Shown here: one piece after another, positions 10,458 through 52,167 of the stretch | How the letters are laid out: each line of letters begins with the position of its first letter | How positions within the stretch are numbered: position 1 is the stretch's first letter | DNA from: an uncultured bacterium | Lineage (GTDB): Bacteria > CSSED10-310 > CAZUFC01 | Direction: 5' to 3' | Length of the DNA stretch: 64,000 nucleotides | Assembly: GCA_964619725.1 (NCBI GenBank) | Contig: CAZUFC010000016.1 | Location: 1-64,000, forward strand | Notes under the pieces: model-generated | Told to the model about the DNA's origin: nothing | Database searches by the model: none | The model's input: only the letters and a program-made list of their open reading frames with translations | Program-made: the position numbers and the translations under genes

Positions 10458-10561
10458 CTTCATCTTAAATTCTCCCTTCCTGTCGTATCCGTCCGCTTCG
10501 CCGGATGCCTGCATAGACCCTGCACCTGACCCTTCCCATTGATGACGTACCTTCTCATCTA

Positions 10562-10761
10562 GTTTTTGTCCATAAACGGCGAATTTTTCCCAATACTGCG
10601 TCAGTCTTCGGATTTGCTCAGTCAAAGTATAAGCGCCGCCCCTGCCTCGCAAATCATTACCATCCTTGTCTTAAGAAAAATTCGCTCGTTTATGGATCAA
10701 AAACCGCAGTGACTGTCCAGCATTAAATTTTGAATCGAGAATCGAGTTAGTGGACAGTCAC
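10562..10761. mobile_element. 200-bp composite MITE-like element, copy 1
   Basis: Ends GTTTTTGTCCA...TGGACAGTCAC. Internal inverted repeats split it into module A (10562-10704) and module B (10709-10761). Flanks CATCTA/TATCTA (5/6 match). Colinear with 32694-32893. Confidence 0.75.
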
Positions 10762-10878
10762 TATCTAATCCCCTGTTGAAAGCTTGCGGGCGAGTCCCTC
10801 TTTACTTTACAAGTAATAAGTTGACCGCTGACGATATTAGGTTTAATATGGTGAGGAAAGGAATGCGAGGCGCTTCCT

Positions 10879-24313: not shown

Positions 24314-25093
24314 ATGATTCACATCGGCACATCAGGATTCAGTTACAATGATTGGATCGGTCCCGTCTATCCCCAGGGAACTAAAAAAAGAGACATGCTG
24401 GCGCTGTATTCGGAACTGTTTTCAACAGTCGAATTGAATTTCACCTATTACGGTTACCCCTCGATAAAAGCTATTCTGTCTATAGTCGAAAAATCAGAAG
24501 GAAAACTTGTTTTTTCGGTCAAAGCCCACCAGGACATTACCCATAAACGGGAAAACATAACTGAAGCTGCCGAAAAATTCATCAAGGGAATCGATCCGTT
24601 GAAAAAAGCAGAAACACTCGGCGCAGTGCTGCTTCAGTTTCCCTGGTCCTTTAAGAATAATAAAAATAACAGACGCTATCTGGCTCAACTGCCGAAGCTT
24701 CTGCCTGACTTACCCCTGGTTGCGGAATTCAGAAATTCCGACTGGATTCAACCTCCTCTGTTCGATTTTTTGCGCTATCACAATCTGGGATTCTGCTGCG
24801 TAGATCAACCCCAATTGAAAGACCTCCTGCCCCCGATGCAGAAAACCACCTCTTCCATAGGATACGTGCGTTTTCACGGTCGAAACGCCGCCAAATGGTG
24901 GACCCATGACAAGGCTTACGAAAGGTATGATTATCTCTACAACCAGGAAGAACTCTCACCCTGGGTCGATTCGATAAAGCAAATGGATCGAAACACCGAC
25001 CGCACTTTCGTTTTCATGAACAATCATTATCGCGGCCAGGCCGTGGAAAACGCAAGGATGCTGATTCAGCTTATTGAAAAAAATAATGATTAA
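24314..25093 (+). CDS. DUF72 family protein
   Basis: 'IGTSGFSYNDW', 'VELNFTYY', 'LLQFP', 'EFRN', 'YVRFHGRN', 'YDYLY', 'FMNNH' motifs. Confidence 0.9.
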   Translation: MIHIGTSGFSYNDWIGPVYPQGTKKRDMLALYSELFSTVELNFTYYGYPSIKAILSIVEKSEGKLVFSVKAHQDITHKRENITEAAEKFIKGIDPLKKAETLGAVLLQFPWSFKNNKNNRRYLAQLPKLLPDLPLVAEFRNSDWIQPPLFDFLRYHNLGFCCVDQPQLKDLLPPMQKTTSSIGYVRFHGRNAAKWWTHDKAYERYDYLYNQEELSPWVDSIKQMDRNTDRTFVFMNNHYRGQAVENARMLIQLIEKNND

Positions 25094-25886
25094 AAAAGCC
25101 GTTATACCTGCCGCCGGAACCGGATCACGCTTAGCGCCGCTGTCCGACGTTATGCCAAAAGAATTATTCCCTCTCGGAAAAAAAGCCATTCTCGACTGGA
25201 TCATTGAAGAAGCTCAGGATGCCGGAATAAAAGAAATCCTGATAATCATTGCTCCGAATAAATCAGTTATTCGCAATTATCTGGAAAAAAGGAACCACAA
25301 AAACATCGGCATTGAATTCGCTCTTCAACCCGAACCGCTCGGACTGGGCGACGCAATCAGCAAAGCACGTCCCTGGACGCCTGACGAGCCTTTCCTCTTA
25401 ATGCTGCCGGATAATCTCTTCTCTGGTTCGACCAGACCGGCCTCCTCTCTGATTACCGCCTTCAAACAAGTCAACGCAAACGTCATCGGCTTAATCAAAA
25501 CCACGGAAATGGATGTAAAAACTCAAGCCTCCTTCTCCTATCCCTTGCTTCAAAAACGGGAAATGAAAAATCTTTATGAAATAACGGATTTTTCAAACAA
25601 ACCGCCCAAACGTGACATCAGCTCAACAATCAAACCAGGAAACTTCCTGGGTGTCGGAAGGTCTCTCCTGATGCCTTCCGTTTTCGATTATATAGAAAGA
25701 TGCCGTTCCGAACTGAAACCGGATCAGGAGCTTGAAGACACGCAACCTTTAAAGCTGGCCGCTGAAAAGGGCGAGGTCTTCGGATGCGCGCTCGATGTTC
25801 GGCGTTTCGATACGGGAAACTGGGACGGCTACCTCAGAGCTTTGGAGTTCTATATAAGCTGCTGCCGGCGCTTTGAAGAAAAATAG
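25086..25886 (+). CDS. GalU-like sugar-phosphate nucleotidyltransferase
   Basis: 'KKAVIPAAGTGSRL.P...PKEL', 'QPEPLGLGDAI', 'LPD', 'RFDTG' motifs. Confidence 0.82.
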   Translation: MIKKAVIPAAGTGSRLAPLSDVMPKELFPLGKKAILDWIIEEAQDAGIKEILIIIAPNKSVIRNYLEKRNHKNIGIEFALQPEPLGLGDAISKARPWTPDEPFLLMLPDNLFSGSTRPASSLITAFKQVNANVIGLIKTTEMDVKTQASFSYPLLQKREMKNLYEITDFSNKPPKRDISSTIKPGNFLGVGRSLLMPSVFDYIERCRSELKPDQELEDTQPLKLAAEKGEVFGCALDVRRFDTGNWDGYLRALEFYISCCRRFEEK

Positions 25887-26069
25887 AACTCATGATTTTA
25901 AACGCTTTTCATATACATCAAAACGTCTTTTACCTGATTCATCTTAACTTATTGAATTAAAGGAAATATAGAGTGTTTTTTTTCGATAGCGGCAGAGGCT
26001 CTGTGACTGGTTTTTTATGCTTTTTTTCCGCTTTTTCTATTTTTTCTTGAAAAAAATCGCTTTTTTCAC

Positions 26070-26097
26070 GAAACTTTATTTTGTCGATTACCGATAA
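26070..26097 (+). promoter_or_regulatory. Sigma28 (FliA/SigD)-like promoter
   Basis: GAAACTTT-N12-ACCGATAA versus the consensus TAAAGTTT-N11-GCCGATAA, about 80 nt upstream of ATG 26176. Confidence 0.5.
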
Positions 26098-26175
26098 CAA
26101 GGCTGAATGAGGGAAGCAAACAAGAGAATGACCCTCTTAAGTTAACGTTATAAATTTTTTCAAGGAGGAAAGAAA

Positions 26176-27609
26176 ATGTTACCAGGTTTGGATCCAGGAA
26201 GAATGTTAAACAACATGATAGACAGGGCTTTACCGGGAAAGCTGGGAGATTTCGTCGGCGACATGGCTGGAACTTATACGGATTTTATGACGGGCAATAC
26301 GATCGGCGCTTTCCAGAATTTTATGGACGGTTTTCAGAATTTCGGAGACCTTATGCAATCGGGCATGGGTTTCCAGGATTTCGCCAGCAATTTCGGCAGC
26401 CAGATACCCGAACCGGGATATTCCCCTTCCTTCGATCAGTCATTGCAGCCTCAGGGACAGTTAGCCGTTGAAGGAAATAAAATTCACACACCCGGCGGAT
26501 ACAGCGTGGAAAACATGGGCGGCACGAAATGGAAGATCACGTCGCCCACGGGAAAAGAAACGCTCATCCACGGCGATCCTCATGTATCGGAAAAGGACGG
26601 CGGCAGATGGGACTGGGACAACAAGACGATGTCCTTCAATTTACCTGATGGGACGAAAATCACGGCCAATGCCACCGGACCTCGGGGCGTTACGACTGAT
26701 TTCGACGTATACTACGGCAACCAGCACGTCCAGGCGACGGGAGTCAATACGGGGAATCCGCAGGTCAGCGGCGTAAGATATGATGCAGCGATCCATGATG
26801 CGATGCATACTGACGGATCGTCCGTGCATCTGGGCGGTGACGGCGATGACTGGTTCAAGATGGTTGACGGGTTCATGCGAGAAGTCGCAGGCGGCGGCGG
26901 AAAACCCGGCGCATTGAAATTCGGCGGCGGTTTCTGGGCTGATAAAATTACGCAACTTTCCAGTTCGCTCGCCGGCATGCCTTCCATGGGCGACTTCCCC
27001 GGCAATGTAATGCAACAGTTCCCCGAAGCTTTCCAGCAGATGAATTTCCTCAATCCCGCCATGGGATTATTACCCAACATTGCCCAGTTTCCGAACTTCC
27101 CCAGCGGTCCGGTTATGCCGGAACAACCGCCCACAGGCGGTGCAGGCGGCGCAGGCGGCGCAGGCGGCGCAGGCGGAGCCGGCGGAACAGGCGACATGGA
27201 CTGGTGGGGAGCGATGAGAGACGTCGAAAACGACAAAACACGGGGTGCATTAATGTCGATGATCAAAGGCGGAAGCTTTGAAGAAAAAATGATGGCCCTC
27301 CTGCTGGCCGCAGCCAACAAAGAGATGAAAAAAGCCGAAGGTTTAGCCAAGAATCTGGATGAAAGCAAAGGCGGCGGCGGTGGCGGCGGCGGCATCGGCG
27401 GCATGATGAAAAATATTCCTCTCGTCGGCGGTCTCTTCGGCGGCGGCGGAGGCGGAGGCGGAGGCGGCGAAGGCTCCGACACCAACGTCAACAACTTCAA
27501 GCTTCAGATGAGCATGCAGAGAATATCCCGGTTATTCCAATCAGTTACGAACATCATGAAAACGATGGGCGACGCCAGAATGGGCATTGCCAGAAACTAT
27601 AAAGCTTAG
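26176..27609 (+). CDS. Putative type III-secreted Gly-rich protein (DUF1521-like core, needle/tip-filament-like C-terminal helix)
   Basis: Strong AAGGAGG RBS; no Cys and no signal peptide; 'IHGDPHV...LPDGTKIT' core; C-terminus KLQMSMQRISRLFQSVTNIMKTMGDARMGIARNYKA; adjacent to a SycD-like chaperone and SctV. Confidence 0.7.
   Translation: MLPGLDPGRMLNNMIDRALPGKLGDFVGDMAGTYTDFMTGNTIGAFQNFMDGFQNFGDLMQSGMGFQDFASNFGSQIPEPGYSPSFDQSLQPQGQLAVEGNKIHTPGGYSVENMGGTKWKITSPTGKETLIHGDPHVSEKDGGRWDWDNKTMSFNLPDGTKITANATGPRGVTTDFDVYYGNQHVQATGVNTGNPQVSGVRYDAAIHDAMHTDGSSVHLGGDGDDWFKMVDGFMREVAGGGGKPGALKFGGGFWADKITQLSSSLAGMPSMGDFPGNVMQQFPEAFQQMNFLNPAMGLLPNIAQFPNFPSGPVMPEQPPTGGAGGAGGAGGAGGAGGTGDMDWWGAMRDVENDKTRGALMSMIKGGSFEEKMMALLLAAANKEMKKAEGLAKNLDESKGGGGGGGGIGGMMKNIPLVGGLFGGGGGGGGGGEGSDTNVNNFKLQMSMQRISRLFQSVTNIMKTMGDARMGIARNYKA
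27136..27186 (+). repeat. 9-bp coding tandem repeat encoding (Gly-Gly-Ala)n
   Basis: GGCGGTGCA GGCGGCGCA GGCGGCGCA GGCGGCGCA GGCGGAGCC GGCGGA inside the 477-aa ORF. Confidence 0.85.
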
Positions 27610-27623
27610 TCAGCAATAAAGCA

Positions 27624-27662
27624 AAACAAAAAAGGCGGTTCGATAAACCGCCTTTTTTGTTT
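27624..27662 (+). terminator. Intrinsic (bidirectional-type) terminator
   Basis: AAACAAAAAAGGCGGTT-CGATA-AACCGCCTTTTTTGTTT, a perfect stem with a U-tract, 14 nt after the stop codon. Confidence 0.9.
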
Positions 27663-27835
27663 GTTTTTCGCTATGAACCTCTCGTCTTACATAAATAGAA
27701 TTCTGCAAATGCCGACTCTTTATCGTCCTTTCCGGTTTCTGCCCATTTGCTCAAGGAAAGACGAAACCCGAAAACGGCATTTTTTTAGGAAATTTACAAA
27801 TTTACGAAATCCGCAAGATAGGCTGCAGCCCTTGC

Positions 27836-27864
27836 TTGACACGAATGCGTTTTTTTGTTTCAAT
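27836..27864 (+). promoter_or_regulatory. Sigma70-type promoter for the chaperone gene
   Basis: TTGACA-N17-TTCAAT, 50 nt upstream of ATG 27915, which has an AAGGAG RBS. Confidence 0.5.
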
Positions 27865-27914
27865 GGACTTAGATACGATAGTCCGTGACTTTTCTTCTAT
27901 CAAGGAGTTAAAAA

Positions 27915-28472
27915 ATGGCTGAAGAAAAAAAAGTAGATGAAACTGCAGGAAAAACAGAACCTGCCGAACAGATCGAGAATCCCATCACGATGGAAGCACT
28001 CGGCGAATTTCTGCGAGGTGAAATCACCCTCCAGGAATTACATCAGATTCACCCTAACGAAATGCTGGCTTTGGCCAAGATGGGCGAAGTGCTGCTTGAA
28101 TCCGGAAAGCTTGACCAGGCTCGCAGCATTTTTGAAGGATTGGTTTCGCTTAATCCTTATATCGGACAGTTTCATACCGTACTCGGCGGAATATACATGA
28201 AAAAGGGCGAACTGGAAAATGCGGTAGCCGAATATTCTGTCGCTGTAGATCGCAATCCCGCCGATATCGCAGCTTATGCCAACAGAGGCGAAATTTATCT
28301 CCGCCAGGGAAAACTCGATCTGGCCACCAAGGACCTCACGAAGGCAATCGAATTAGATAAAGAAACCGACCCGGCCAAGAAGAATCCGGCTTCAATGCGA
28401 GCGATTGTTTTAGCAATGGCTTTAAACGAAACTTTGAACGAAATACAGAAAAAGCAGGGGGAAAGCAAATAG
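27915..28472 (+). CDS. TPR type III secretion chaperone, SycD/LcrH (class II)-like
   Basis: 'GEITLQELHQIHPNEMLALAKMGEVLLESGKLDQARSIFEGLVSLNPY' fits the LcrH/SycD N-terminal pattern; three TPRs; directly upstream of sctV. Confidence 0.75.
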   Translation: MAEEKKVDETAGKTEPAEQIENPITMEALGEFLRGEITLQELHQIHPNEMLALAKMGEVLLESGKLDQARSIFEGLVSLNPYIGQFHTVLGGIYMKKGELENAVAEYSVAVDRNPADIAAYANRGEIYLRQGKLDLATKDLTKAIELDKETDPAKKNPASMRAIVLAMALNETLNEIQKKQGESK

Positions 28473-28696
28473 TCGTTTAATAAACGTTTTTTTGCGGTTT
28501 TCTCCTGTTAACGGAGCGATACTGTGGGATTGCTCCGGAGCGCTTTTTCAAGCAGCACAAAAGAGTATTTTTCTTCAGCCTGTTTTTTCTTGATTCAAGA
28601 AATTTATTGTTTAATTTATCGACTTGAAGGTAATAGCATTCGGAGCGTTACAGGCATGTAAATTATTAATTCTATTAAAGGACGGACGGCGCAAGT

Positions 28697-30817
28697 ATGT
28701 CTAAAATGACGAATGTGAAGAGGTCTCTGGCGGACGGCGGATTAACGGAAGCTCTGACGAAATACAGCGATATAATGCTGGCGGGACTGGTAATCGGCAT
28801 AGTGGGAATGATGCTGATCCCTTTGCCGACTTTTTTATTGGACATATTGCTGACGATGAACATTACCCTGGCAGTGACCATATTGCTGGTAACCCTATAC
28901 GTACCCGGCGCCATAAAATTCGCATCCTTTCCCACTGTGTTGCTCATTGCAACTCTGTTCAGGCTTGCACTGAACGTGTCTTCGACAAGGCTGATTCTGC
29001 TGTATGCTTATGCGGGAGAAGTCATTAAATCATTCGGAAATTTTGTGGTTAAAGGCAATTTCGTTGTAGGGGCCGTAATTTTTCTGATTCTGACGTTAAT
29101 TCAATTCATCGTGATATCGAAGGGTTCGGAGCGGGTAGCGGAGGTTGCGGCGCGTTTTACGCTTGATGCCTTACCCGGTAAGCAGATGAGCATTGACGCC
29201 GATATGCGTGCAGGATCGATCAGCATGGAGGAAGGAAAACGGAGGCGCGAGGAACTGGAGCGTGAATCGCAGCTTTACGGGTCCATGGACGGGGCTATGA
29301 AGTTTGTGAAGGGGGATGCCATCGCAGGCATCATCATCACCGCCATAAACATTATCGGCGGGTTGATCATCGGCATAATGCAGCAGGGGATGTCCGCTGG
29401 AGAGGCCGCCCAGACATATACCTTGTTGACTATCGGCGATGGATTGGTTTCCCAGATACCGGCGCTTCTCTTGTCGACCGCCGCCGGTATGGTCGTTACT
29501 CGCGTCGCTTCGGAGCACGAGGATTCGCATCTCGGCAAGGATATAGGAACTCAGTTGCTGGATCAGCCGAAAGCGATCGGAATAGCTTCCGGTATGTTGT
29601 TTCTTTTGGGCATTGTGCCGGGATTGCCGATGGTGCCGTTCTTTATCCTCGGCGCTGTCACGGGAACCATCGCCTACGGTCTTTTGAAGACCAGGGAAAT
29701 ATCTGAAGAAGCAGCGGAAGAGATTGAAGCAGAGGAAGAAGAAAAAAAGAAGGAGGAAGCAGCGAAAGAGGGACTGGTTTCTTTGGTTACTCCGCTTGCG
29801 CTGGAAGTGGGCGAAGAATTGACCAAATTTGTGGATTTGAAGTACGATGGAGGCAAATTCATCAATGAGATGCTGCCGATGATCCGGGAAGGCATCTATC
29901 AGCAACTCGGAACAAGATTACCTGGCGTGAGAGTGCGCGGATACAGCCGGGCGCTCGGTCCGGACATGTATATGATCCTTGTGAACGAAATTCCTGTGGT
30001 CACAGGCAGAATTCTTATGAACAAAATACTGGTGAACGAAGCCGCTCAGAGTCTAAAAATTTTCAATATAGATGCCATTCCCACTACGAATCCGGCGACC
30101 GGCTCGCCTGCAGCCTGGGCGCCCGAAGAAAAAAGGGAAATTATTGAAAAAGCCGGTTATAAAATATGGGATGTGCCCGGAGTCCTGACGCTGCACCTCT
30201 CAGGAGTCATGCTGAAGCATGCTCACGAATTTATAGGCATCCAGGAAGTACAGTCAATGCTGGATCAAATGGAACAGGCTTTTCCCGCTCTCGTGAAAGC
30301 CGCTTCAAAGGCGGTTAATACCCTCAAACTGTCCGAAGCTTTGCAACGACTCGTCCATGAACAGATCAGCATCCGTGATTTTCGCAGAATTCTGCAATCC
30401 GTGGCCAAGTGGGGTCCCATTGAGCCCGACGATGTTATGATGCTTACAGAATACATCAGGACCGATCTCAAGGAAATCATCAGTTACAAATATTCAGGCG
30501 GCAAAAATACGCTCATCGTTCACCTTCTGGATTCTGATATAGAAGACTTGATCCGCAGCTCAATTAAAAAAACAAAAGCCGGCAACTATCCGAACCTCAA
30601 TCCCGATGTCGCCGAAGAAATACTGGCGGTTATGGGACGCGAATTAAAACATTCGCTAAACTCACCAACTCCGCCGGTAATTCTCTGCAGTTTCGACGTA
30701 AGGCCTTATTTCAAAAGCATCGTGAAAGACACTTATCCCCGCGTAGCGGTTCTTTCATTTCATGAAATCGCCGGCGATATGAATATACAGCCGGTCGGTC
30801 AAATTAGCATCGGTTGA
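28697..30817 (+). CDS. sctV: Type III secretion export gate SctV (LcrD/YscV/HrcV family, non-flagellar type)
   Basis: FHIPEP motif with injectisome-type residues KGSERVAEVAARF, QMSIDADMRAG and ESQLYGSMDGAMKFVKGD; no FlhA-type GH-containing insertion after STRLILL. Confidence 0.88.
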   Translation: MSKMTNVKRSLADGGLTEALTKYSDIMLAGLVIGIVGMMLIPLPTFLLDILLTMNITLAVTILLVTLYVPGAIKFASFPTVLLIATLFRLALNVSSTRLILLYAYAGEVIKSFGNFVVKGNFVVGAVIFLILTLIQFIVISKGSERVAEVAARFTLDALPGKQMSIDADMRAGSISMEEGKRRREELERESQLYGSMDGAMKFVKGDAIAGIIITAINIIGGLIIGIMQQGMSAGEAAQTYTLLTIGDGLVSQIPALLLSTAAGMVVTRVASEHEDSHLGKDIGTQLLDQPKAIGIASGMLFLLGIVPGLPMVPFFILGAVTGTIAYGLLKTREISEEAAEEIEAEEEEKKKEEAAKEGLVSLVTPLALEVGEELTKFVDLKYDGGKFINEMLPMIREGIYQQLGTRLPGVRVRGYSRALGPDMYMILVNEIPVVTGRILMNKILVNEAAQSLKIFNIDAIPTTNPATGSPAAWAPEEKREIIEKAGYKIWDVPGVLTLHLSGVMLKHAHEFIGIQEVQSMLDQMEQAFPALVKAASKAVNTLKLSEALQRLVHEQISIRDFRRILQSVAKWGPIEPDDVMMLTEYIRTDLKEIISYKYSGGKNTLIVHLLDSDIEDLIRSSIKKTKAGNYPNLNPDVAEEILAVMGRELKHSLNSPTPPVILCSFDVRPYFKSIVKDTYPRVAVLSFHEIAGDMNIQPVGQISIG

Positions 30818-30894
30818 TGTTCCAGCGAAAAATAAATGAGTTTTCCGCGGCAGCCTTTCAGTGAAAACATTAAGTTTAACGGAACGTCAAACGG

Positions 30895-31932
30895 ATGAAA
30901 AAAAGACCATTTAGAAAATTCGCCTTTCAAGCCGCAGCGAAGGTTCTCTGGAAAAGCGGCGTTATTCGCCGGCAACTCCGAAACAAACCGCAAAAGCGCT
31001 TGCAGGTTTTAGCCTATCATTCGCTTAAACCTCATTTCTTTTTTCGAAAGTTATTTGAAATTGAAAGAGCGGAAGAACATTTTGAAAAACAGATGTATTT
31101 CCTGAAGCATTTCATGTCTCCGGTCAGCCTTGATGAGGTCCTCGGGTTTCTCTACAAAGGAAAGGCGTTGCCGCCCAATCCTGTGCTGGTAACTATCGAC
31201 GACGGTTATCGCGATTGCTGGGATTCTGCTTTTCCATCTTTAAAAAAATTCAGTATACCCGCCGTCCTGTTTTTAACTACCCAACCTGTCGATCAGGATT
31301 CTTTTTTGTGGTTCGACAAGTTGTATTACTGGTTGAGCGAAACGGCCGAATCGTCTTTATCTGTAGAGACCGGAAGCGGCGTTCGTCGATTTTCTTTAGA
31401 GACGATTACCGACAGACGGAATGCCGCCGTGACTCTGCGCCGAATCCTGAAATCCTTACCGAACCGGGAACGATTGAAATGGCTCGAATCCATCGAACAA
31501 TCTCTCAATCTCTCCCCGGACGACCCTAGGTTAGAAAGCATGAAATTGCTCGATTGGCCGCAGGTTAAAAAGATGTCGGAAGCAGGCATTGAATTCGGTT
31601 CTCATTCGGTTTCTCACCCCATTATGACGAGATTGAATGACGATGAATTTGCATTTGAAGCGAAATTTTCCAAAAACAGAATCGAAGAATCAATCTCAAA
31701 ACCCGTGCGCGCTTTTGCTTTTCCCAGCGGACGGAAGGGTGAGTTCAACCGCAGCGCACAGGACAAACTGAAAAAAATCGGTTATCAATGCGCTTTCACT
31801 TTCATGCCCGGATACGTTTCTGAAAAAACGCCGCCTTTTGAAATCAACCGTTTCGGTTTCTTCGGAGAAAATCTTGAAAGCTTCGCTTATCTGATGTCGG
31901 GACTCAATAAAAAAAAGAAAAATAAACTGTAA
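30895..31932 (+). CDS. Polysaccharide deacetylase (CE4/NodB homology)
   Basis: 'VLAYH', 'VTIDDGYRD', 'GSHSVSH', 'FAFPSG' motifs. Confidence 0.85.
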   Translation: MKKRPFRKFAFQAAAKVLWKSGVIRRQLRNKPQKRLQVLAYHSLKPHFFFRKLFEIERAEEHFEKQMYFLKHFMSPVSLDEVLGFLYKGKALPPNPVLVTIDDGYRDCWDSAFPSLKKFSIPAVLFLTTQPVDQDSFLWFDKLYYWLSETAESSLSVETGSGVRRFSLETITDRRNAAVTLRRILKSLPNRERLKWLESIEQSLNLSPDDPRLESMKLLDWPQVKKMSEAGIEFGSHSVSHPIMTRLNDDEFAFEAKFSKNRIEESISKPVRAFAFPSGRKGEFNRSAQDKLKKIGYQCAFTFMPGYVSEKTPPFEINRFGFFGENLESFAYLMSGLNKKKKNKL

Positions 31933-32082
31933 TCTTTTCCAAGCTATAATAAGTAATCATGAACGAGCGTATATTGAAATTTTCGGGACTGGTCAGATTG
32001 GGACGACAAATTGACGCCGGCGTACGTCGCACATTATTTTAATCAATGACTTATTTTTGTATGAAGGGAAGGCGGAGAATTT

Positions 32083-32562
32083 GTGAAGAGAAGCAATTGG
32101 CATGAATACTTTATGAAAATCACTCGCTCTGTCGCTGAAAGGTCGACATGTCCCAGAGCCGCTGTGGGAGCGGTTATAGTCAAAAATCGTTCCATCCTTT
32201 CCACAGGATACAATGGAGCGCCCAGCGGTCAAAAGCATTGTACTGAAGTGGGATGCCTTGTCTATGAATCTAAGAATCCATTCGGCGAAACTGAAAAAAA
32301 TTGCTACCGAACGACGCACGCAGAGATGAATGCCGTCATACAGGCTGCGAAAAACGGCACAGCCATATCAGGAGCGGACATATACATCACTCATTCGCCC
32401 TGTTATCATTGCCTTAAAGCTCTCATCAACGCCGGCATCAGGAACATTTACATCGAAACGCCGTACAAGATTCATACCATCAAAGAACTTATCGAAAATT
32501 CAGACCTTCGGATATACAGAATTCATTCCGACGGGAAATTAACACCGCTTTTCGATGTTTGA
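32083..32562 (+). CDS. dCMP deaminase family protein (ComEB-like)
   Basis: 'RSTC.RAAVGAVIV', 'TGYNGAP', HAEMNA and PCYHC zinc motifs. Confidence 0.9.
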   Translation: MKRSNWHEYFMKITRSVAERSTCPRAAVGAVIVKNRSILSTGYNGAPSGQKHCTEVGCLVYESKNPFGETEKNCYRTTHAEMNAVIQAAKNGTAISGADIYITHSPCYHCLKALINAGIRNIYIETPYKIHTIKELIENSDLRIYRIHSDGKLTPLFDV

Positions 32563-32693
32563 CCTCCTTCCCGCCGACACGACCGACAGTCAGATAAATA
32601 ATCAAGCGATGATTTAAATACACGGATTTTTGGAAGTCATTGTCCGGCCCTCAGCAACCAAGGGTCAACACGGATAAGAGAAGAAGATAGTTA

Positions 32694-32893
32694 GTTTTTG
32701 TCCATAAACGGCGAATTTCCCCCAGTGCTGCGTCAGGCTAACGATTTGCTCAGCCAACATATAATAAATACGCCTTCTTCGCAAATCCTTGCCTTCCTTG
32801 CCTTAAGAAAAATTCGCCCGTTTATGGATCAAAAACCCAAGTGGCTGTCCAGCATCAAATTTTGAATCGAGATTCGAGTTTGTGGACAGACAC
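32694..32893. mobile_element. 200-bp composite MITE-like element, copy 2
   Basis: Same length and layout as 10562-10761; perfect 6-bp flanking direct repeat TAGTTA (32688-32693, 32894-32899). Confidence 0.78.
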
Positions 32894-33057
32894 TAGTTAT
32901 GGAAATTGTAATTTCCGTTTGATCAGTCCCAGCTTTTGTCGCCTAATACATAGGGCGCTGATAATGATTTTGTGAACCGCCGCCGGCTCACATTGACTTG
33001 CAAGGTCCGAATCATTCTTTTATTATTGAATTCGTTTTTTGGGGATGAGGTTGTGAA

Positions 33058-34647
33058 GTGAAAAAATCAGATAAAAAAAACAATTATTTCAAAGAGCGAA
33101 AGCATGAACTTATCATACTTGGGATCATCTTTTGCCTTTTTTTAGCGCATGCTTTCCTGATGTCTTTCTATGATACCGATGATGCTTACATTTCTTTCCG
33201 ATACGCGCGTAACCTTTACAAAGGTGAGGGGCTTACATTCAATCCCGGCCAGAGAGTCGAAGGGTATACAAATTTTCTTTGGACTGTTCTGATGGTCGTT
33301 CCGTTTGCCCTGAGATTTCCGCCGATTATCTGGGCGCGCCTGTTGAGCATATTCTCAGCTTTATTACTGATGTGGCTGCTCTATCGGCGTTCTCAGTCGA
33401 GCATTCCTCTGTGCCGTCTGTCCGGGCCCCTCCTTTTCGCTTGTTCAGGCTCTGCAGCTATATGGGTCATGGCCGGACTCGAAACTGTTTTTTTCAGCCT
33501 GTTGATTTTCTGGGCGATGATTCGCAGCGTGGAAAAAGAACAATCATTCAAACACATTATGTTCACAGGCCTTCTAGCTCTCGGAGCGGCCCTGACGAGA
33601 CCCGAGGCATTGATGTTCGTATTTCTTTTCGGCGTTTTTCAGCTAACGTTATGCAAACGCGACAATTTCTGGGCGGTCCTGACGGAATTTGTCCTTTTCT
33701 TTTTATTATACGGGATTTATTTCTTTTGGCGATATAACTACTACGGATATTTTCTCCCCAACACATTTTACGCTAAAACCGGAGGCGGCGGGAGTCAGAT
33801 CGAACAGGGACTGGCGTATCTGAAATCATTCGCTTTCGGCCCGGGTTTGATCCCTTTGATACTGATGTTTTGCTCCATGATGAAAAAAGGTAGAAGTCGC
33901 CGCAACAGCCTGATGATATTATCGGTGATGTTGTTTTTAGTATACGTCGCCTTTATCGGCGGCGATTGGATGCCGCTGTGGCGTTTTATGGTCCCGGTCT
34001 TGCCCATTATTTTTTACCTGGTCTCGGACGGATTGGAAGCCTTACATAACCGCATCAAGTCGAAAAACGCCGGCTCTGTCATTATTGCCTTGCTTCTGCT
34101 TTTAGCTGTCACCGGACAGATGCCCTCATCCCTGAAATGGATTCGTCAGAATCCCGTTTTTACCGGAGAACCTAAGGTCGATGTTCTGAAAGAACTAGGA
34201 CTTCACCTGAAAAAAAACGCCCCGCCTAATGCCGTAATCGCAGTCGTGCCTGCAGGAAAAATACCTTTTTACTCTGAATTGTGGACCATCGACATGAGGG
34301 GTCTCTTGGATACTCATATTGCTCATGAAAAAATTCAAAGAACAGGCCTGGCGGGACATGAAAAACGCGATCCGGACTATATCATGTCGCTTCACCCCGA
34401 TTACATCGTCACGACCGGAGCCCGCCGAAAAAAAGTTACCGCATTCCCTCTTAAAGACCTCAATTCTGATAAAACTCTCGATACATACAGCATACTGAAT
34501 CACCCGGATTTTACGAAGAATTACACCGTAAAGATAATCGAGCTGCAGCAAGGAAACAAAGACCTGCAATTCTACGAGAGAAAGCATCCCCCCGGAAGAT
34601 TGAGAAACCATGACGAATCTCTGCATAATTCGTCATCCGAAAACTGA
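33058..34647 (+). CDS. Multi-pass membrane GT-C-type glycosyltransferase
   Basis: 'DDAYISFRYARNL', 'VEGYTNFLW', 'TRPE', 'PNTFYAK', 'GGDWM...RF' motifs; many TM helices. Confidence 0.75.
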   Translation: MKKSDKKNNYFKERKHELIILGIIFCLFLAHAFLMSFYDTDDAYISFRYARNLYKGEGLTFNPGQRVEGYTNFLWTVLMVVPFALRFPPIIWARLLSIFSALLLMWLLYRRSQSSIPLCRLSGPLLFACSGSAAIWVMAGLETVFFSLLIFWAMIRSVEKEQSFKHIMFTGLLALGAALTRPEALMFVFLFGVFQLTLCKRDNFWAVLTEFVLFFLLYGIYFFWRYNYYGYFLPNTFYAKTGGGGSQIEQGLAYLKSFAFGPGLIPLILMFCSMMKKGRSRRNSLMILSVMLFLVYVAFIGGDWMPLWRFMVPVLPIIFYLVSDGLEALHNRIKSKNAGSVIIALLLLLAVTGQMPSSLKWIRQNPVFTGEPKVDVLKELGLHLKKNAPPNAVIAVVPAGKIPFYSELWTIDMRGLLDTHIAHEKIQRTGLAGHEKRDPDYIMSLHPDYIVTTGARRKKVTAFPLKDLNSDKTLDTYSILNHPDFTKNYTVKIIELQQGNKDLQFYERKHPPGRLRNHDESLHNSSSEN

Positions 34648-35697: not shown

Positions 35698-37713
35698 TCA
35701 AGTGCAGCGTCGAACGGTGTTTATGGCTAACAGACAGGCGAGGAAAAGGGTAAGGAGAGCTATACCTGCGGAAGATGATGCGGGGATCGAAGGGGTCGTG
35801 GGAATCAGTGTAGGCGTAGGCGTAGGAGGCGGAGGAACCAGAGATGCGCTCATATAGTGGAAACCCATATCCGCCATTTCCGAATCATATACGCTGTCCG
35901 TTCGAGTAGTGAACTGACTTAAACAATGAGTTTTATACAATCCCTCGAAGCAGACCCAAAGGGCATCCCGATCGCCCCCGTCGATGCACGGACTGTCCAG
36001 AGTTTGTCCCGCAGCCGTGTGACTCAGATAATAATCTCCATTCGTGCCTGCGGCGAATAAAGGGTCCTCGTTGATGTTGCCTGTGCCCGTATATCCCTCC
36101 TGAATGTCGGAATATTGGACAATTGGAATAGGAAATCCATGGACGAAAATTCCGTCGGGAGAGTTATTCCAAAAGATGGTATTGGAAATTTGAGGGCTTG
36201 CATTAAAAGAATATAGACCGCCGCCGTCCAGCCCCTCAGACGTCCCGTTTCCGGCGAATGTGCAATTGAGTATTTCCGGTTCGGATTCGAAACAATATAT
36301 AGCGCCGCCGGAACTGAAACTGTAATTGTCGTAAAACAGACAATTAGTTATATTCGGCGTCGTTTCTTCATAACAAAGAATGGCTCCGCCGCCGTATTGA
36401 GCGAAATTAGCGGAAAAAATGCAGTTTGCCACGGCAGGCGAACCGCTTTCCAGGTAAATCCCGCCGCCGTAATCAGCCATCCCGTTTTTTATCGTTAATC
36501 CTCTTATGATCGAATCCTGAGTTTCGCCGTTGTGAAAATGAAATCCTCTGCCCTGAGACTCGCAATCGATAACGCAATAATCGGGTCCGTATTGAGAGGC
36601 GACAGTGATGGCTTTTCCGTGAAAATCTAAATTATAATTGCCGTTGCCCGAGTATGTTCCGTTATGGATAAGTACGATTTCACCCGGATCAGCAGCATTA
36701 ATGGCTCCCTGAATGGTGTTGTAATCTGCAGGCACGTGTTTGATTATCCCTGTCTTATAGAAATGAGCGCCCATGTCTACCGTTCCCCAATCCCGCCCGA
36801 ATTCATCATACCTCGTCGTCAGGTCGCTCAGACATAACTCAGGCGCGCTTCCCGGCAAACATATCTCGGAGGCGAGGCTGCTTCCGGTATCCAGGCACGG
36901 ACTGTTGAATGACTGCCCTGCAATGGTTTGACTCAGATAATATCCGCCGCATGGACCTGCGGCGAATATAGGATTCTGATCGATATTGCCGGCTCCTGCG
37001 AATCCGCCCTGAACGTCTGAGTAGGTGATCTGCGGAACCTCATCCCCGGCTATGGTTACGCCTGCGTTATCCCAAATAATGCAGTTTTCCAGTACCGGCG
37101 AGGAATTGAGTATGCTGTATACAGCGCTTCCTTCGCTTCCAGCGGAATTTTCCGCTACAGTGCAATTGTAAAATTCAGGTTCGGCGTTGAAATAACAGGC
37201 AATAGCTCCGCCCGAATCCGAATAGTTGTTCGTCGCTATACAATTAATAAATGTCGGAGAGCTTTCAATACAATATATTCCCCCTCCTTCGTACGTAGCC
37301 GTATTTCCTTCGATTCTGCATCCCCATATCACCGGATCGGAATAATCCACATAAAATCCTCCGCCCCAGGCGCTGGAACCGTTCCTTACGGTAAAACCCC
37401 TGATTATAGTATCCGACTGCTCAGCATCATTGATGTAAAATGACCGGCCGCTACCTTCGCAATCTATAATGCAGGTGAGAAATCCGTTCGCGGACATAAC
37501 CGTTATCGCTTTACCCTTCAATTCGATCTCTTTGTTGCCCGTTCCCGTATATGTTCCGTCGGAAACCAGAACCGTGTCGCCGTTCATTGCCGTATTTATG
37601 CCTGCCTGAATCGTCGGTTGATCTTCAGGAACATGGATCACCGCCCCGAAAGCCGTGCCGGCTGTTATCATTACCGCTAAATTTAAAATATAAAAAATCT
37701 TATACTTTTTCAA
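35698..37713 (-). CDS. Secreted right-handed beta-helix repeat protein (duplicated module) with a Pro/Thr linker and C-terminal TM sorting signal
   Basis: TTG start with AGGGGTGA RBS; two 'HVP.D..TIQ..IN.A..G..VL...GTY' modules; GG(A/G)I repeats; tail PTPTPT...IPASSSAGIALLTLFLACLLAINTVRR. Confidence 0.8.
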   Translation of the reverse strand: MKKYKIFYILNLAVMITAGTAFGAVIHVPEDQPTIQAGINTAMNGDTVLVSDGTYTGTGNKEIELKGKAITVMSANGFLTCIIDCEGSGRSFYINDAEQSDTIIRGFTVRNGSSAWGGGFYVDYSDPVIWGCRIEGNTATYEGGGIYCIESSPTFINCIATNNYSDSGGAIACYFNAEPEFYNCTVAENSAGSEGSAVYSILNSSPVLENCIIWDNAGVTIAGDEVPQITYSDVQGGFAGAGNIDQNPIFAAGPCGGYYLSQTIAGQSFNSPCLDTGSSLASEICLPGSAPELCLSDLTTRYDEFGRDWGTVDMGAHFYKTGIIKHVPADYNTIQGAINAADPGEIVLIHNGTYSGNGNYNLDFHGKAITVASQYGPDYCVIDCESQGRGFHFHNGETQDSIIRGLTIKNGMADYGGGIYLESGSPAVANCIFSANFAQYGGGAILCYEETTPNITNCLFYDNYSFSSGGAIYCFESEPEILNCTFAGNGTSEGLDGGGLYSFNASPQISNTIFWNNSPDGIFVHGFPIPIVQYSDIQEGYTGTGNINEDPLFAAGTNGDYYLSHTAAGQTLDSPCIDGGDRDALWVCFEGLYKTHCLSQFTTRTDSVYDSEMADMGFHYMSASLVPPPPTPTPTLIPTTPSIPASSSAGIALLTLFLACLLAINTVRRCT

Positions 37714-38002
37714 AATGTCACCCCTTTTCAACAGGCATCTTTTCCGCTCGATCCCTGCTTTATCAGTATACCGGCCCGTAATACAATTTTCAAACTGTAA
37801 CGGCTGTTTATATTGATTCTTCGTCAACTCCAGGGATAATCAACGGTTCTTCATCATTTCGTCGAACGAATCTACGCACGTAGCTTTCCTGCCTGTCAAC
37901 CTCATATTTCTTTTGAAAACGGACCATTCCTCTCTGAACAAATATACCGAAAACCCTGCTGAGAAATATCTCTCTGAAAGCCTCCAAAGCTTTTGCCGGC
38001 GG

Positions 38003-44776: not shown

Positions 44777-45769
44777 ATGCATCAAGAAGAAATACGAAAA
44801 CTTCACGAACTAATAAACGAAAAATCGGAATTCGTAGAGACTATTTTCGATCAGATACGTCAAGTCATCGTCGGTCAGAAATATTTAATCGAACGACTTC
44901 TAATTGGTCTTCTGGGAGACGGCCATATACTGATAGAAGGAGTTCCGGGACTGGCGAAAACGCTATCGGTAAAAACTCTATCGGATTCCATATCCGGCAA
45001 ATTCCAAAGAATTCAGTTTACTCCGGACATGTTGCCCGCCGACCTGATAGGCACCATGATTTATAATCAACGCGAAGGAACTTTCGTTGCGAAAAAGGGT
45101 CCATTGTTCACCAATCTTGTTCTGGCTGATGAGATCAACAGGGCTCCGGCGAAAGTCCAAAGTGCGCTGCTGGAAGCGATGCAGGAGCGTCAGGTGACCA
45201 TAGGAGAAACGACCTATCCTTTGGAAAAGCCGTTTTTGGTGTTGGCGACGCAGAATCCCATCGAACAGGAGGGAACGTATCCTCTGCCTGAAGCGCAGGT
45301 GGACCGTTTCATGTTGAAGCTGAACGTAACTTATCCGAGCAAGGAAGAAGAGAGAGCCATTCTGGACAGAATGACGGGTATGGAAGAGCCGAAGGTGGAC
45401 AGCGTGATAACGCCGCAGCAGATTGTGGAATCCCGGAAAATAGTGAACCAGGTTTATGTGGATGAACGGATAAAAAATTATGTCGTGGATTTGGTTTTCG
45501 CTACCAGGTATCCCAAAGATTACGGTCTTGAGGAACTGCAGGACCTTATCCGGTACGGAGCCTCACCCCGTGCGACGATTTATCTGACGACGGCCGCCAG
45601 GGCCCATGCTTTCATCCGCCGGCGAGGCTATGTTACGCCGGAGGATGTGAAAGCAATCAGCCTGGATGTTTTACGGCATCGGATCATTTTAACGTATGAG
45701 GCTGAAGCGGAAGAGAGAAGCGCCGAGGATGTCGTCGGCCAGATACTGGATACGGTGGAGGTCCCGTAG
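44777..45769 (+). CDS. moxR: MoxR-family AAA+ ATPase
   Basis: EGVPGLAKT, RIQFTPD, DEINRAPAKVQSALLEAM, ATQNPIEQEGTYPLPEAQ.DRF motifs. Confidence 0.95.
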   Translation: MHQEEIRKLHELINEKSEFVETIFDQIRQVIVGQKYLIERLLIGLLGDGHILIEGVPGLAKTLSVKTLSDSISGKFQRIQFTPDMLPADLIGTMIYNQREGTFVAKKGPLFTNLVLADEINRAPAKVQSALLEAMQERQVTIGETTYPLEKPFLVLATQNPIEQEGTYPLPEAQVDRFMLKLNVTYPSKEEERAILDRMTGMEEPKVDSVITPQQIVESRKIVNQVYVDERIKNYVVDLVFATRYPKDYGLEELQDLIRYGASPRATIYLTTAARAHAFIRRRGYVTPEDVKAISLDVLRHRIILTYEAEAEERSAEDVVGQILDTVEVP

Positions 45770-45858
45770 GGCATAATTCATGCCGGAATATATCCGAGAT
45801 ACATGGGATTGAGCGGCTATTCAGAGTATGAAGTTTCATTATTTGGAAATATCGGATC

Positions 45859-46743
45859 ATGATACCCAAGGAATTGCTGAAAAAAATCAGGCGCATTGAG
45901 ATTTATACCAACCGTATGGTCAATGAGGTCATTGCAGGTCAATATCAGAGCGTGTTCAAGGGCCGCGGAATGGAGTTCGACGAAGTCAGAGAATACAGAC
46001 CAGGCGACGACATAAGAACGATCGACTGGAATGTTACGGCCCGCATGGGAAGCCCTTACGTCAAAAAATACGTTGAAGAGCGTGAACTTACCGTCATGCT
46101 GCTTGTGGACGTCAGCTCATCAGGCTCCTTCGGCTCGTTCAATCAAATGAAAGGCGAACTCGCCGCAGAAATCTGCGCTTTACTCGCCTTCTCCGCGATT
46201 AAAAATAATGATCGCGTCGGCCTGCTCGCCTTTACCGACCAGGTTGAAAAATATATTCCCCCCAAAAGCGGATCAGAACATGTGCTTCAGATCGTCAGAG
46301 AAATACTCTATTTCAAACCTAAAAGGACGGAAACCGACATCGCCGGCGCGCTTGATTACCTGAACAGAATTCAAACGAAAAAAGCAGTTGTTTTTCTTGT
46401 ATCAGACTTTCTTTCCGGAGAATATGAAAAACCGTTGAGAATCGCCAATAAAAAACACGACGTCATAGCGATATCCGTTTCAGACCCCAGAGAAATAAGC
46501 TTGCCGCCCATAGGCATTCTGGAACTTGAAGATGCCGAAACTGGCGACATCCTGGTCGTTGATACGTATGACTCCCAGTTACTGGATCAGTTCTCTGCCA
46601 CATCAGAGGAAAACAGAAACAGCCGCACGGAAATGTTCAAAAAAATGGGTATCGATCACATAGAAATCTTTACCGATAAACCCTACCTTAAACCGCTGGT
46701 TCTCTTTTTCAGGGAACGGGCCAGGAGATTAAGGGCGCTGTAA
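45859..46743 (+). CDS. DUF58 domain protein
   Basis: 'KGRGMEFDEVREYRPGDDIRTIDWNVTAR', DVSSS, 'SDF'; follows moxR. Confidence 0.92.
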   Translation: MIPKELLKKIRRIEIYTNRMVNEVIAGQYQSVFKGRGMEFDEVREYRPGDDIRTIDWNVTARMGSPYVKKYVEERELTVMLLVDVSSSGSFGSFNQMKGELAAEICALLAFSAIKNNDRVGLLAFTDQVEKYIPPKSGSEHVLQIVREILYFKPKRTETDIAGALDYLNRIQTKKAVVFLVSDFLSGEYEKPLRIANKKHDVIAISVSDPREISLPPIGILELEDAETGDILVVDTYDSQLLDQFSATSEENRNSRTEMFKKMGIDHIEIFTDKPYLKPLVLFFRERARRLRAL

Positions 46744-46807
46744 GCTGGAGGATTATGGTCGATTATGCATTGTCTTTCGTTCAATTTATTATTCTGGAGA
46801 ATCTAAA

Positions 46808-47773
46808 GTGAAAAGTCTGGTCATAGTCAATACCGTCATTTTATTACTGCTGCTCGGAACTGTCGGATATATGCTGACGGATCAGTCTGAAGAACAATAT
46901 CGGGAGGACCCCGAATGGATAAAGGAGTATGCTGCCCTGCTGACTTCAAAAGAATTGTATGAGCAGGCGATTGAGGCTTATAAAAGGTACGCCGAATTTT
47001 CAGGCATAGGACTGGACCGTCGCATCAACGCCAATTACATGATCGGAAAAATCTACCAGGAAAACCTCAAGGATTATGAAAACGCTCTGGCTTATTTTTA
47101 CAAAGTCAAACAATTTCGCCCTTCCGGCGACCTCATGAATGAAACCAACCGCAACATCGTGGAATGTCTTGAAAGAATGCAGAGAAGCTCAGACGCTCAA
47201 CGGGAACTGGACCGCATAACCAGGCATGGAGCGGAAGCCGAGGCGAAAGAAGAGGAGGGAGTGGTACTGGCGCGCATTGGAGATGAATCGATAACGCTTG
47301 AGGAAATAAGAGAAAAAATAACTGAATTGCCTGAAGATTCGGCTGAGTCATTTACGACCTGGGACGGATTCAGAAATTTTCTGAGGAATTACGTGGCCGA
47401 GGAAGTAATATACAAAGCGGCTTTACGACAAAATTTACAAAAATCGCCGGAAATCAGGGAGAAAATTGAGGAAGTGGAGAAAGCCTTATTGGTGCAAAAG
47501 GTTATCGAAACGGAACTGGCCGACAACGTTGAATTGCCTGAATCGGACCTGAGACTCTATTATAAGGCTCATAAAGATCGTTACAAGAAACCCGCTGCAG
47601 GCGATTCAGAAGAAGAAGAGATAATGAGTTTTGAAGAAGCGCGTCAGAAGATCGCTGCCGACCTGGCCCGGGAAAGGGGAATGGAGGTTTGGCAAAACTT
47701 GATCAACAGGCTTTCTGCAGCAGAGGACGTAGAATTTTATGAAGAAAGAATACCGGAACATCCTATGGAATAG
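46808..47773 (+). CDS. Membrane-anchored TPR protein with a PrsA/SurA-like chaperone scaffold lacking a parvulin domain
   Basis: N-terminal TM and TPR-like helices, then 'VLARIGDESITLEE...YYKAHKDRY...SFEEARQKI', similar to the non-catalytic part of 42208-43560. Confidence 0.65.
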   Translation: MKSLVIVNTVILLLLLGTVGYMLTDQSEEQYREDPEWIKEYAALLTSKELYEQAIEAYKRYAEFSGIGLDRRINANYMIGKIYQENLKDYENALAYFYKVKQFRPSGDLMNETNRNIVECLERMQRSSDAQRELDRITRHGAEAEAKEEEGVVLARIGDESITLEEIREKITELPEDSAESFTTWDGFRNFLRNYVAEEVIYKAALRQNLQKSPEIREKIEEVEKALLVQKVIETELADNVELPESDLRLYYKAHKDRYKKPAAGDSEEEEIMSFEEARQKIAADLARERGMEVWQNLINRLSAAEDVEFYEERIPEHPME

Positions 47774-49762: not shown

Positions 49763-49772
49763 GGATGCTGTC

Positions 49773-52164: not shown

Positions 52165-52167
52165 ATT

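Follow-up and report, generated by a model that had tools for sequence, protein, structure and literature searches.

Introduction

Type III secretion systems (T3SS) of the kind found in Myxococcota, described as the 'Myxo' group of non-flagellar T3SS (NF-T3SS) or, in Myxococcus xanthus, as T3SS*, are reported to include SctD, SctJ, SctI, SctQ, SctR, SctS, SctT, SctU, SctV, SctN and SctL together with several LcrH homologues, and are portrayed as devoid of a secretin, a needle and a translocon and as evolutionary intermediates between the flagellum and the injectisome (PMC3459982, PMC10433427, PMC12075869). The M. xanthus T3SS* and the Kil Tad pilus are described as needed to lyse bacterial prey (PMC10433427, PMC12075869), and dispersal of core genes across several loci is described for the T3SS of Chlamydiales (PMC3459982). 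The MIIA domain (DUF1521), which its description places so far in the secreted proteins NopE1, NopE2 and VIC_001052, is reported to be disordered without Ca2+ and, with Ca2+, to fold and to cleave after the Asp of a GDPH motif (PMC6506597). Here we describe a T3SS locus in which a MIIA-type protein is encoded next to a TPR protein and an SctV. It lies in the first 64,000 bases (the whole stretch analysed, referred to as the window) of the 97,562 bp contig CAZUFC010000016.1 (C16), from the metagenome-assembled genome (MAG) GCA_964619725.1 (G000; 9.17 Mb, 344 contigs, 90.9% complete, 6.5% contaminated).

The locus consists of three open reading frames (ORFs) on the same strand, placed as in a preliminary description of the window:

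26176-27609, + strand, gene for a 477 aa Gly-rich protein
27915-28472, + strand, gene for a 185 aa TPR protein
28697-30817, + strand, gene for a 706 aa SctV

On balance the three genes probably make up a module of substrate, chaperone and export gate that belongs to one split system of the T3SS* kind, with a MIIA-needle-like substrate and shared late-gene control. We conclude that the split T3SS is genuine, that it is atypical in a way already known, and that the architecture of its substrate is both rare and new.

Results

The export gate protein

The 706 aa protein matched Pfam FHIPEP end to end (785.7 bits). It exceeded the equivalog cut-off of the NCBIfam SctV model TIGR01399 (795.5 vs 692.25 bits), whose positions 2-677 of 677 were matched by the intact protein, and it fell below the equivalog cut-off of the FlhA model TIGR01398 (697.3 vs 772.1 bits). 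The injectisome-type residues from which the preliminary description had recognised the gate protein were all found, the three diagnostic strings starting at residues 142, 164 and 190; the first, KGSERVAEV, recurs unchanged in Aeromonas AscV and Shigella MxiA, and Salmonella FlhA carries the FlhA-type strings KGAGRIAEV, MAIDADLNAG and EADFYGSMDGASKFVRG at the corresponding sites.

A quick IQ-TREE phylogeny of 95 FHIPEP proteins (LG+G4, SH-aLRT support only; four rows were left out on account of their length, as was one duplicate row) agreed with the model cut-offs that the protein is of the SctV type and not FlhA. A branch of length 0.8 with an SH-aLRT value of 100 separated a clade of 90 SctV rows from FlhA of the same genome, of Salmonella and of Sulfitobacter. 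The window SctV is inside the SctV clade and not within FlhA, and the row nearest to it, at 57% identity, comes from the same-phylum genome G004; the closest named relatives are from Myxococcota (54-56% identity). It stands in a poorly resolved basal grade with rows from Myxococcota, Acidobacteria and Eisenbacteria, in none of the starred clades, and outside a 37-row clade (SH-aLRT 100) that unites Chlamydiae, Ysc, SPI-1-type, Hrp, Rhizobiales, Desulfovibrionales and PVC rows. The parallel with Chlamydiae drawn earlier consequently holds as an analogy for gene dispersal and fails as kinship.

According to the genome index the organism is outside the myxobacteria, and the 13 other genomes of its phylum (14 in all in the index) include none that is closer than phylum level. 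The SctV proteins of the phylum fall in three lineages of the tree, one made up of G000 and G004, one in which G002 joins a Myxococcaceae-like group, and one further clade (G003, G005, G006, G008, G009, G010 and G012). Three lineages within one small phylum suggest several acquisitions or an old paralogy.

The split core set and the flagellar set

Exactly two matches each of FHIPEP, FliP, Bac_export_2, T3SS_ATPase_C and YscJ_FliF were found in the genome. Contig C7 holds a full flagellar cluster (FliI, FliJ, FliK, FlgD, FlgE, MotA, MotB, FliL, FliN, FliP, FliQ, FliR, FlhB, FlhA, FlhF and FlhG), and a second T3SS core set (SctJ, SctL, SctN, SctO, SctP, SctQ, SctR, SctS, SctT and SctU) occupies a single strand of contig C79 (40.5 kb). 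It comprises SctU-T-S-R, a FliO-like gene, which is placed before SctR, and SctQ-P-O-N-J. SctQ is a 535 aa fusion of FHA, FliM and FliN domains, SctP is FliK-like and SctO is YscO-like. The cluster further includes a FliA/WhiG-like sigma factor (138.7 bits, below the cut-off of 189.6), a 1335 aa protein with a peptidoglycan-binding domain, a 133 aa TPR protein, SctL and a FliG_M-like protein, and an FHA/YscD-like protein is encoded farther along the contig. Immediately ahead of SctJ, a 140 aa ORF gave its best Pfam match, a weak one, to SctI (19.4 bits). Beside SctU are genes for a 1213 aa Ser/Thr kinase with AAA and TPR domains and for an S8 subtilase. The core proteins score between the flagellar and the Sct models, as follows:

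SctU: Sct model 357.6 bits (cut-off 358); FlhB 345.4 bits (cut-off 349.25)
SctR: Sct model 222.4 bits (cut-off 208.6, passes); FliP 217.1 bits (cut-off 217.45, fails)
SctS: passes the Sct model; passes FliQ
SctN: passes the Sct model; passes FliI_clade2
SctJ: Sct model 153.3 bits (cut-off 161.95); FliF 70.5 bits

No SctV was found on C79, so that the system is split, with SctV apart from the rest and at least ~30 kb from the nearest T3SS-related gene of C79 even if the two contigs abut. SctJ, SctN, SctQ, SctR, SctS, SctT, SctU and SctV are all present besides the flagellar set, spread over two contigs. The remainder of a non-flagellar system, which had been expected elsewhere in the genome, is accounted for by this cluster, and the presence of SctR, SctS, SctT, SctU and SctN on C79 argues against a relic gate gene. 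In tetranucleotide composition C16 and C79 correlate with the bin mean at 0.989 and 0.983, respectively, the median of the bin being 0.984.

G004 is likewise split, with its TPR-SctV pair among unrelated genes on contig C195 and SctU on contig C227. In Archangium, Cystobacter, Corallococcus, a Myxococcaceae MAG and two Bryobacterales MAGs the genes are contiguous, SctN-O-P-Q-R-S-T-U being followed after 3-6 kb by TPR-SctV, and the arrangement in the window reads as such a contiguous Myxococcota-type cluster cut in two.

The 477 aa protein

The protein beside the gate gene had been noted as Gly-rich and free of Cys, and it has 92 Gly residues in 477 (19%) and no Cys. It is made up of a conserved N-terminus, a DUF1521/MIIA domain, Gly-rich linkers and an SctF-like C-terminal hairpin, and is in these respects more specific than the secreted protein it was taken for, its export being predicted. 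The following features were assigned, A1 being the alignment of the family of the 477 aa protein:

26452..26889, + strand, beta-rich DUF1521/MIIA core, residues 93-238 (AlphaFold2 model; most conserved part of A1)
26572..26583, + strand, GDPH motif, residues 133-136, with predicted autocleavage between D134 and P135 (motif match)
27277..27606, + strand, C-terminal helix, Gly-rich loop and helix, residues 368-477, SctF-like (model, hhalign)

DUF1521 (PF07481) was matched above its Pfam cut-off of 23.6, with 32.8 bits at residues 122-167 and 33.9 bits in a second scan. The AlphaFold2 model has a mean pLDDT of 47; strands make up the core at residues 93-238, where block pLDDT is largely in the range 67-87 and falls to 50-55 at residues 131-150 and to 53-59 from residue 201, and helices occur at residues 368-399 and 434-476 with low pLDDT. 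The GDPH motif is kept in 10 of the 11 family members in A1, and cleavage between D134 and P135 is predicted by analogy with the MIIA domain studied elsewhere. The member that has lost the motif, P0010, keeps the remaining DUF1521 domain and the needle-like C-terminus.

Searches of 5.8 billion clusters returned 11 homologues of the protein, four of which carry precomputed matches to both PF09392 and PF07481. The A1 profile matched 1276 proteins at E<=0.001 among 1.84 billion representatives, and the DUF1521 part and the C-terminal hairpin were both covered in only about 8 of the best 150 of these, so that the fusion is rare. The combination of MIIA with an SctF-like hairpin is new in kind as well as rare, and no paper combining 'DUF1521' and 'needle' was found in the library searched. 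A PDB sequence search with the 477 aa protein gave low-complexity matches only, and the best scores in a protein atlas search (0.76) were below the level of a lead. A harpin identity was considered and rejected, with no harpin family matched in Pfam at E<=0.01.

Canonical SctF needle subunits are about 80 aa long, and YscF-YscG and CdsF-CdsG are pairs of such subunits with TPR-like chaperones. The family of the C-terminal domain (A2), when aligned by hhalign with eight canonical SctF proteins (A3), gave a probability of 90.5% and an E-value of 1.3e-6 over 43 columns, which correspond to the C-terminal helix. PF09392 was matched by three homologues with 28.8, 25.5 and 19.7 bits against a cut-off of 29.4. 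The C-terminal 137 residues of the window protein, where the loop is swollen by poly-Gly runs, matched no Pfam family, and PF09392 had no match genome-wide, 11.9 bits being the best score. Because this cut-off was not reached, the protein is called SctF-like and is not filed as SctF. Of the 39,844 genomic ORFs with 50 aa or more, an HMM of canonical SctF matched only two, a 161 aa ORF at C79:29502-29987 (E 1.3e-4) and the 477 aa protein (E 0.08). The former is inside the core cluster and adjoins a TPR protein with CdsG as its best NCBIfam match (35.3 bits, cut-off 170). A fold search of the PDB with the low-confidence model found generic helical hairpins only and barely probed the beta-rich core; a Shigella needle-complex entry (Z 7.8) stood among unrelated rows and for that reason is not informative.

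A needle-like gene, a TPR orthologue and SctV occur in that order at two further loci (L064 and L049). In Archangium gephyra (L045 5213-6466), three tandem 93 aa needle-like ORFs and a separate 382 aa DUF1521 protein are encoded ahead of two TPR genes, which SctV follows; Cystobacter fuscus (L076 5891-6595) has two 73 aa ORFs and a 279 aa DUF1521 protein. In Corallococcus aberystwythensis (L054 7545-8657) the ORFs number three and span 72-79 aa, and the two that were scanned scored ~24 bits on PF09392. These small Myxococcota ORFs alone (A5) gave a probability of 94% and an E-value of 1.5e-7 when aligned with canonical SctF by hhalign. In Myxococcota, tandem ORFs of SctF size (72-93 aa) are in this way found between LcrH-like TPR genes and SctV, in loci of the kind that published work calls needleless. 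As SctF-sized ORFs and a DUF1521 gene are separate there, the gene of the window protein looks as though two genes that adjoin each other elsewhere had been fused in it.

The TPR protein

Within T3SS, TPR chaperones hold substrates, and the cytoplasmic ring of SctV is the docking place of chaperone-substrate complexes. The 185 aa protein matched TPR families of Pfam, and its best NCBIfam match was LcrH_SycD (TIGR02552) with 64.1 bits, under the cut-off of 104.8; it scored 30.8 bits on the SctY model. Of the SycD-like chaperone described earlier, the TPR protein and LcrH_SycD as best match stand, and formal membership of that family does not. It is a small TPR protein encoded beside a predicted T3SS substrate. 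TPR orthologues are encoded directly 5' of SctV in G004 and in many Myxococcota loci. Among those beside SctV in other lineages, LcrH_SycD was matched by 11/11 with the best E-value, tied with three general TPR families, the SctY model by 10/11 (best E 4.3e-10) and SicA by 9/11.

A PDB sequence search with the 185 aa protein returned generic or designed TPR proteins only. The complex of the TPR protein (alignment A4) with the C-terminal part of the 477 aa protein (residues 341-477, alignment A1) was predicted with a score of 0.02, the mark being 0.32, which speaks neither for nor against binding. In G004, a gene for a 350 aa leucine-rich-repeat protein (L117 9066-10118) ends ~310 nt before the TPR gene of the TPR-SctV pair and takes the place that the MIIA-needle-like gene has in the window; this genome encodes its DUF1521 protein ~18 kb away on the same contig.

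Regulatory motifs

Two signals flank the gene of the 477 aa protein:

26071..26097, + strand, sigma-28-type promoter-like motif AAACTTT-N12-ACCGATAA, 79 nt before the gene (consensus match)
27624..27662, + strand, terminator-like hairpin with a 17-18 bp stem and a T-run, 15 nt after the stop codon (pattern scan, consensus match)

The pattern AAACTTT-N(10-13)-CCGATAA has three matches on both strands of the 9.17-Mb genome; block shuffles gave a mean of 0.5, and three matches were reached in 1 of 30 shuffles. The second match is 6 nt before the ORF of the 161 aa needle-like protein of C79. The third is 72 nt before a 409 aa ORF on contig C6 with a Peptidase_C39_2 domain (66.3 bits), which its share in this rare motif makes a candidate T3SS effector. 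This peptidase (110402-111631; locus L141 5403-6632) has a hydrophilic N-terminus and a Gly/Val-rich tail. Upstream of the organism's own flagellin gene is a canonical sigma-28 motif, AAAGTTT-N11-GCCGATAT. In flagella, late substrates are under sigma-28. The shared rare motif links the contigs C16 and C79 functionally, as far as sequence can indicate, and with a gene for a FliA-like sigma factor also present in the cluster, joint control of the dispersed parts as late genes is probable.

Secretin, needle and translocon

The genome, at 90.9% completeness, has seven secretin genes, none of them over the SctC cut-off (TIGR02516) and none on C16 or C79. Two are GspD and one is PilQ; the other four are under every cut-off, and one of these is best on MshL. 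No translocon or tip protein (SctE/SctB), a fast-evolving group, was named by Pfam among the ORFs of C16 and C79, no dedicated search for them having been made. The term injectisome, used in the preliminary description, is not borne out by this gene content. Traits of the Myxococcota-type T3SS* are seen instead, namely a core cluster without a secretin, LcrH-like TPR genes and FHA-bearing ring proteins.

Genomic context of the locus

The neighbours of the three genes are as first described:

25074-25886, NTP_transferase gene (Pfam)
30895-31932, polysaccharide deacetylase gene (Pfam)

A Pfam scan of 63 ORFs across the whole 97.5-kb contig C16 (6 ORFs at the locus and 57 others at E<=1e-5) found no other T3SS, flagellar, integrase or transposase family. 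The locus is flanked by 26.2 kb and 66.7 kb of other genes, none of them recognised as T3SS genes, which extends to the contig the isolation that had been noted for the window. The G+C content is ~0.45 in the window and climbs only to 0.48-0.50 across the locus; this modest rise and the lack of a mobile-element family on C16 fit a resident rather than a recently acquired locus, as had been supposed. Contigs of four DNA runs, all from a single study and with the label microbial mat metagenome, contain identical pieces of the locus; the source may be among these four runs. Read depth over the locus is low, ~7x in the best run, and the matches of the sequencing-run search were DNA runs only, with no RNA run among them.

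Neither Rfam at the gathering threshold (25500-33200) nor ARAGORN (32500-33100) gave a match. An antisense ORF at 26712-27500 on the - strand (262 aa, Pro-rich) was rejected as a gene, as it mirrors the Gly codons of the 477 aa gene. An interspersed repeat of ~205 bp with inverted ends, which has no Rfam or tRNA match, occurs in the window at 32686-32900 and 10560-10763 and again on C16 at 82441-82628. It has 438 blastn matches genome-wide, 144 of them of at least 150 bp, and very high depth in the metagenome runs; copies at the starts of C7 and C79 indicate that it probably breaks the assembly. The window also contains a Bat-like aerotolerance operon (44777-54836; MoxR AAA_3, DUF58, two BatA/VWA, TPR, two BatD and TPR-SH3) and, at 35698-37827 on the - strand, a gene for a 709 aa protein with a right-handed beta-helix, Chlamydia PMP-type repeats and a hydrophobic C-terminal tail.

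Discussion

If the three genes form one module, SctV would be the inner-membrane export gate whose cytoplasmic ring docks chaperone-substrate complexes, and the TPR protein would be the cytosolic chaperone that holds the 477 aa protein and delivers it to SctV. The cargo would be an exported member of the needle family (SctF-like) with the MIIA/DUF1521 domain ahead of a needle-like hairpin. If this domain behaves like the MIIA domain studied elsewhere, it may remain unfolded in the low-Ca2+ cytoplasm and, once exported, may fold on binding Ca2+ and cleave its own chain between D134 and P135. The FliA-like sigma factor of the cluster would drive the genes of the 477 aa protein, the needle-like protein of C79 and the C39-like peptidase as late genes. 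The machine would be of the Myxococcota T3SS* kind, with no secretin of its own and with traits between those of flagellum and injectisome, and its targets, which were first proposed to be protists or other microbes, seem more likely to be other bacteria than eukaryotes by comparison with M. xanthus.

Several observations weigh against this assignment. The DUF1521 match is partial, covering profile positions 33-79 or 33-104 of 169, and one family member, P0010, does without GDPH. The likeness to SctF is remote and concerns one helix of 43 residues, PF09392 is not matched in the window protein, and the best match of the family profile to YscF in the PDB has an E-value of 0.033. The TPR protein is below the LcrH_SycD cut-off. 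The promoter-like motif was defined from the two needle-like genes, which leaves the third match and the comparison with flagellin as its independent evidence; it is missing before the needle-like genes of 12 related loci (0/20 starts) and missing in 12 loci of genomes of the same phylum. A system with no secretin of its own leaves the way of the substrate out of the cell unaccounted for, and in a MAG of 344 contigs with 6.5% contamination neither the distance between the loci nor the absence of SctC can be fixed.

A serious though rather unlikely alternative is that the 477 aa protein is an effector or helper of the NopE/harpin kind and not a needle subunit, in which case the TPR protein would be its class II-like chaperone and the C-terminal helix a general element for export or chaperone binding. 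Such a role would be in keeping with the secreted NopE1, NopE2 and VIC_001052, the proteins for which the domain's description reports DUF1521/MIIA so far (PMC6506597), with the Gly-rich, Cys-free composition, with a weak SctF likeness of 43 columns, with the fact that most of the 1276 profile matches cover the DUF1521 part only, and with the shorter needle-like protein (161 aa) that the C79 cluster owns next to its CdsG-like TPR neighbour. It is less easily reconciled with a C-terminal helix motif that genome-wide occurs only in two T3SS-linked ORFs, with the occurrence of the same C-terminal domain elsewhere as stand-alone tandem ORFs of 72-93 aa before TPR-SctV, and with the promoter motif that the 477 aa gene has in common with the needle-like gene of the cluster. 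The pair might also be the counterpart of SctX and SctY in the Ysc family, in which case the 477 aa protein would be an exported accessory protein with the TPR protein as its chaperone, both binding SctV and both needed for the export of early substrates. The gene order equals that of ascX-ascY-ascV as annotated on an Aeromonas salmonicida plasmid, and 10/11 TPR orthologues match the SctY model at up to E 4.3e-10, but LcrH_SycD outscores SctY for the window protein and, among the 11 members, reaches a lower best E-value, AscX is ~120 aa by its annotated coordinates vs 477 aa here, and no search gave similarity to SctX, no direct comparison having been made; we regard this analogy as quite improbable.

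It is very improbable that the split is an artefact of binning or assembly, with C16 and C79 derived from different organisms, or that SctV is a relic decaying without a working partner. Contamination, fragmentation and the low read depth of the MAG would allow such an error, yet the composition of both contigs is typical of the bin, the copy numbers fit one flagellum and one split system, and the rare promoter motif is common to both contigs. G004 is moreover split in the same way, SctV is intact over the length of its model, and the identical pieces of the locus recur in contigs of the four runs, even if one of these may be the source.

Beyond a module of gate, chaperone and MIIA-needle-like substrate, we tentatively raise the possibility that the 'needleless' T3SS* encode needle-family subunits that standard models miss, that the one described here is a filament or needle subunit which is fused to MIIA and processes itself outside the cytoplasm, and that a sigma-28 paralogue encoded in the cluster switches on a late regulon of the two needle-like genes and the C39-like peptidase as an effector, spread over three loci and serving a machine aimed at other microbes. 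Among such missed subunits would then be the products of the SctF-sized genes that stand in tandem ahead of TPR-SctV in Archangium, Cystobacter and Corallococcus. Needle-like genes of remote but specific likeness, placed beside chaperones and SctV here and in myxobacteria, are candidates for the 'missing' axial structure. A Ca2+-triggered self-cleaving domain on such a subunit would be a new route of maturation for a T3SS substrate, and the poorly understood MIIA domain gains a new structural context. The occurrence of the T3SS* type in a second, distant phylum, as split and probably co-regulated loci, suggests that it is wider and older than one predatory order.

In comparison with known systems, the order of exported protein, TPR chaperone and SctV is that of SctX-SctY-SctV in the Ysc family, but no sequence link to SctX was found and the window TPR protein is nearer LcrH than SctY. 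With NopE1 and NopE2 of Bradyrhizobium and VIC_001052 of Vibrio coralliilyticus the 477 aa protein shares DUF1521 above the cut-off, GDPH and linkage to T3SS, and it differs from them in that the domain, with cleavage predicted, is joined to an SctF-like hairpin and encoded near SctV. The helix-loop-helix with a conserved C-terminal helix and the TPR gene next door recall SctF and its TPR-like chaperones, in contrast to which the protein has 477 aa instead of ~80, a long N-terminal extension, poly-Gly inserts in the loop and a score below the PF09392 cut-off. Core genes in several loci are a feature in common with the dispersed T3SS of Chlamydiales, although secretin, needle and translocon are all part of the chlamydial systems and the window SctV is outside the clade of Chlamydiae and classical systems. 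From the T3SS* of M. xanthus (MXAN_2434-2464) and the 'Myxo' NF-T3SS of Abby and Rocha 2012 the system differs in the separation of the SctV, TPR and substrate genes from the core cluster, in its host, which belongs to another, small phylum and is also flagellated by gene content, in the FliA-like sigma factor of the cluster and in the MIIA-needle-like fusion. It shares with them the absence of a secretin of its own, several LcrH-like TPR genes and SctD, SctJ, SctI, SctQ, SctR, SctS, SctT, SctU, SctN and SctL, and Myxococcota SctV proteins are its nearest named relatives; overall it comes closer to the T3SS* of Myxococcota, which lacks a secretin, than to a classical injectisome.

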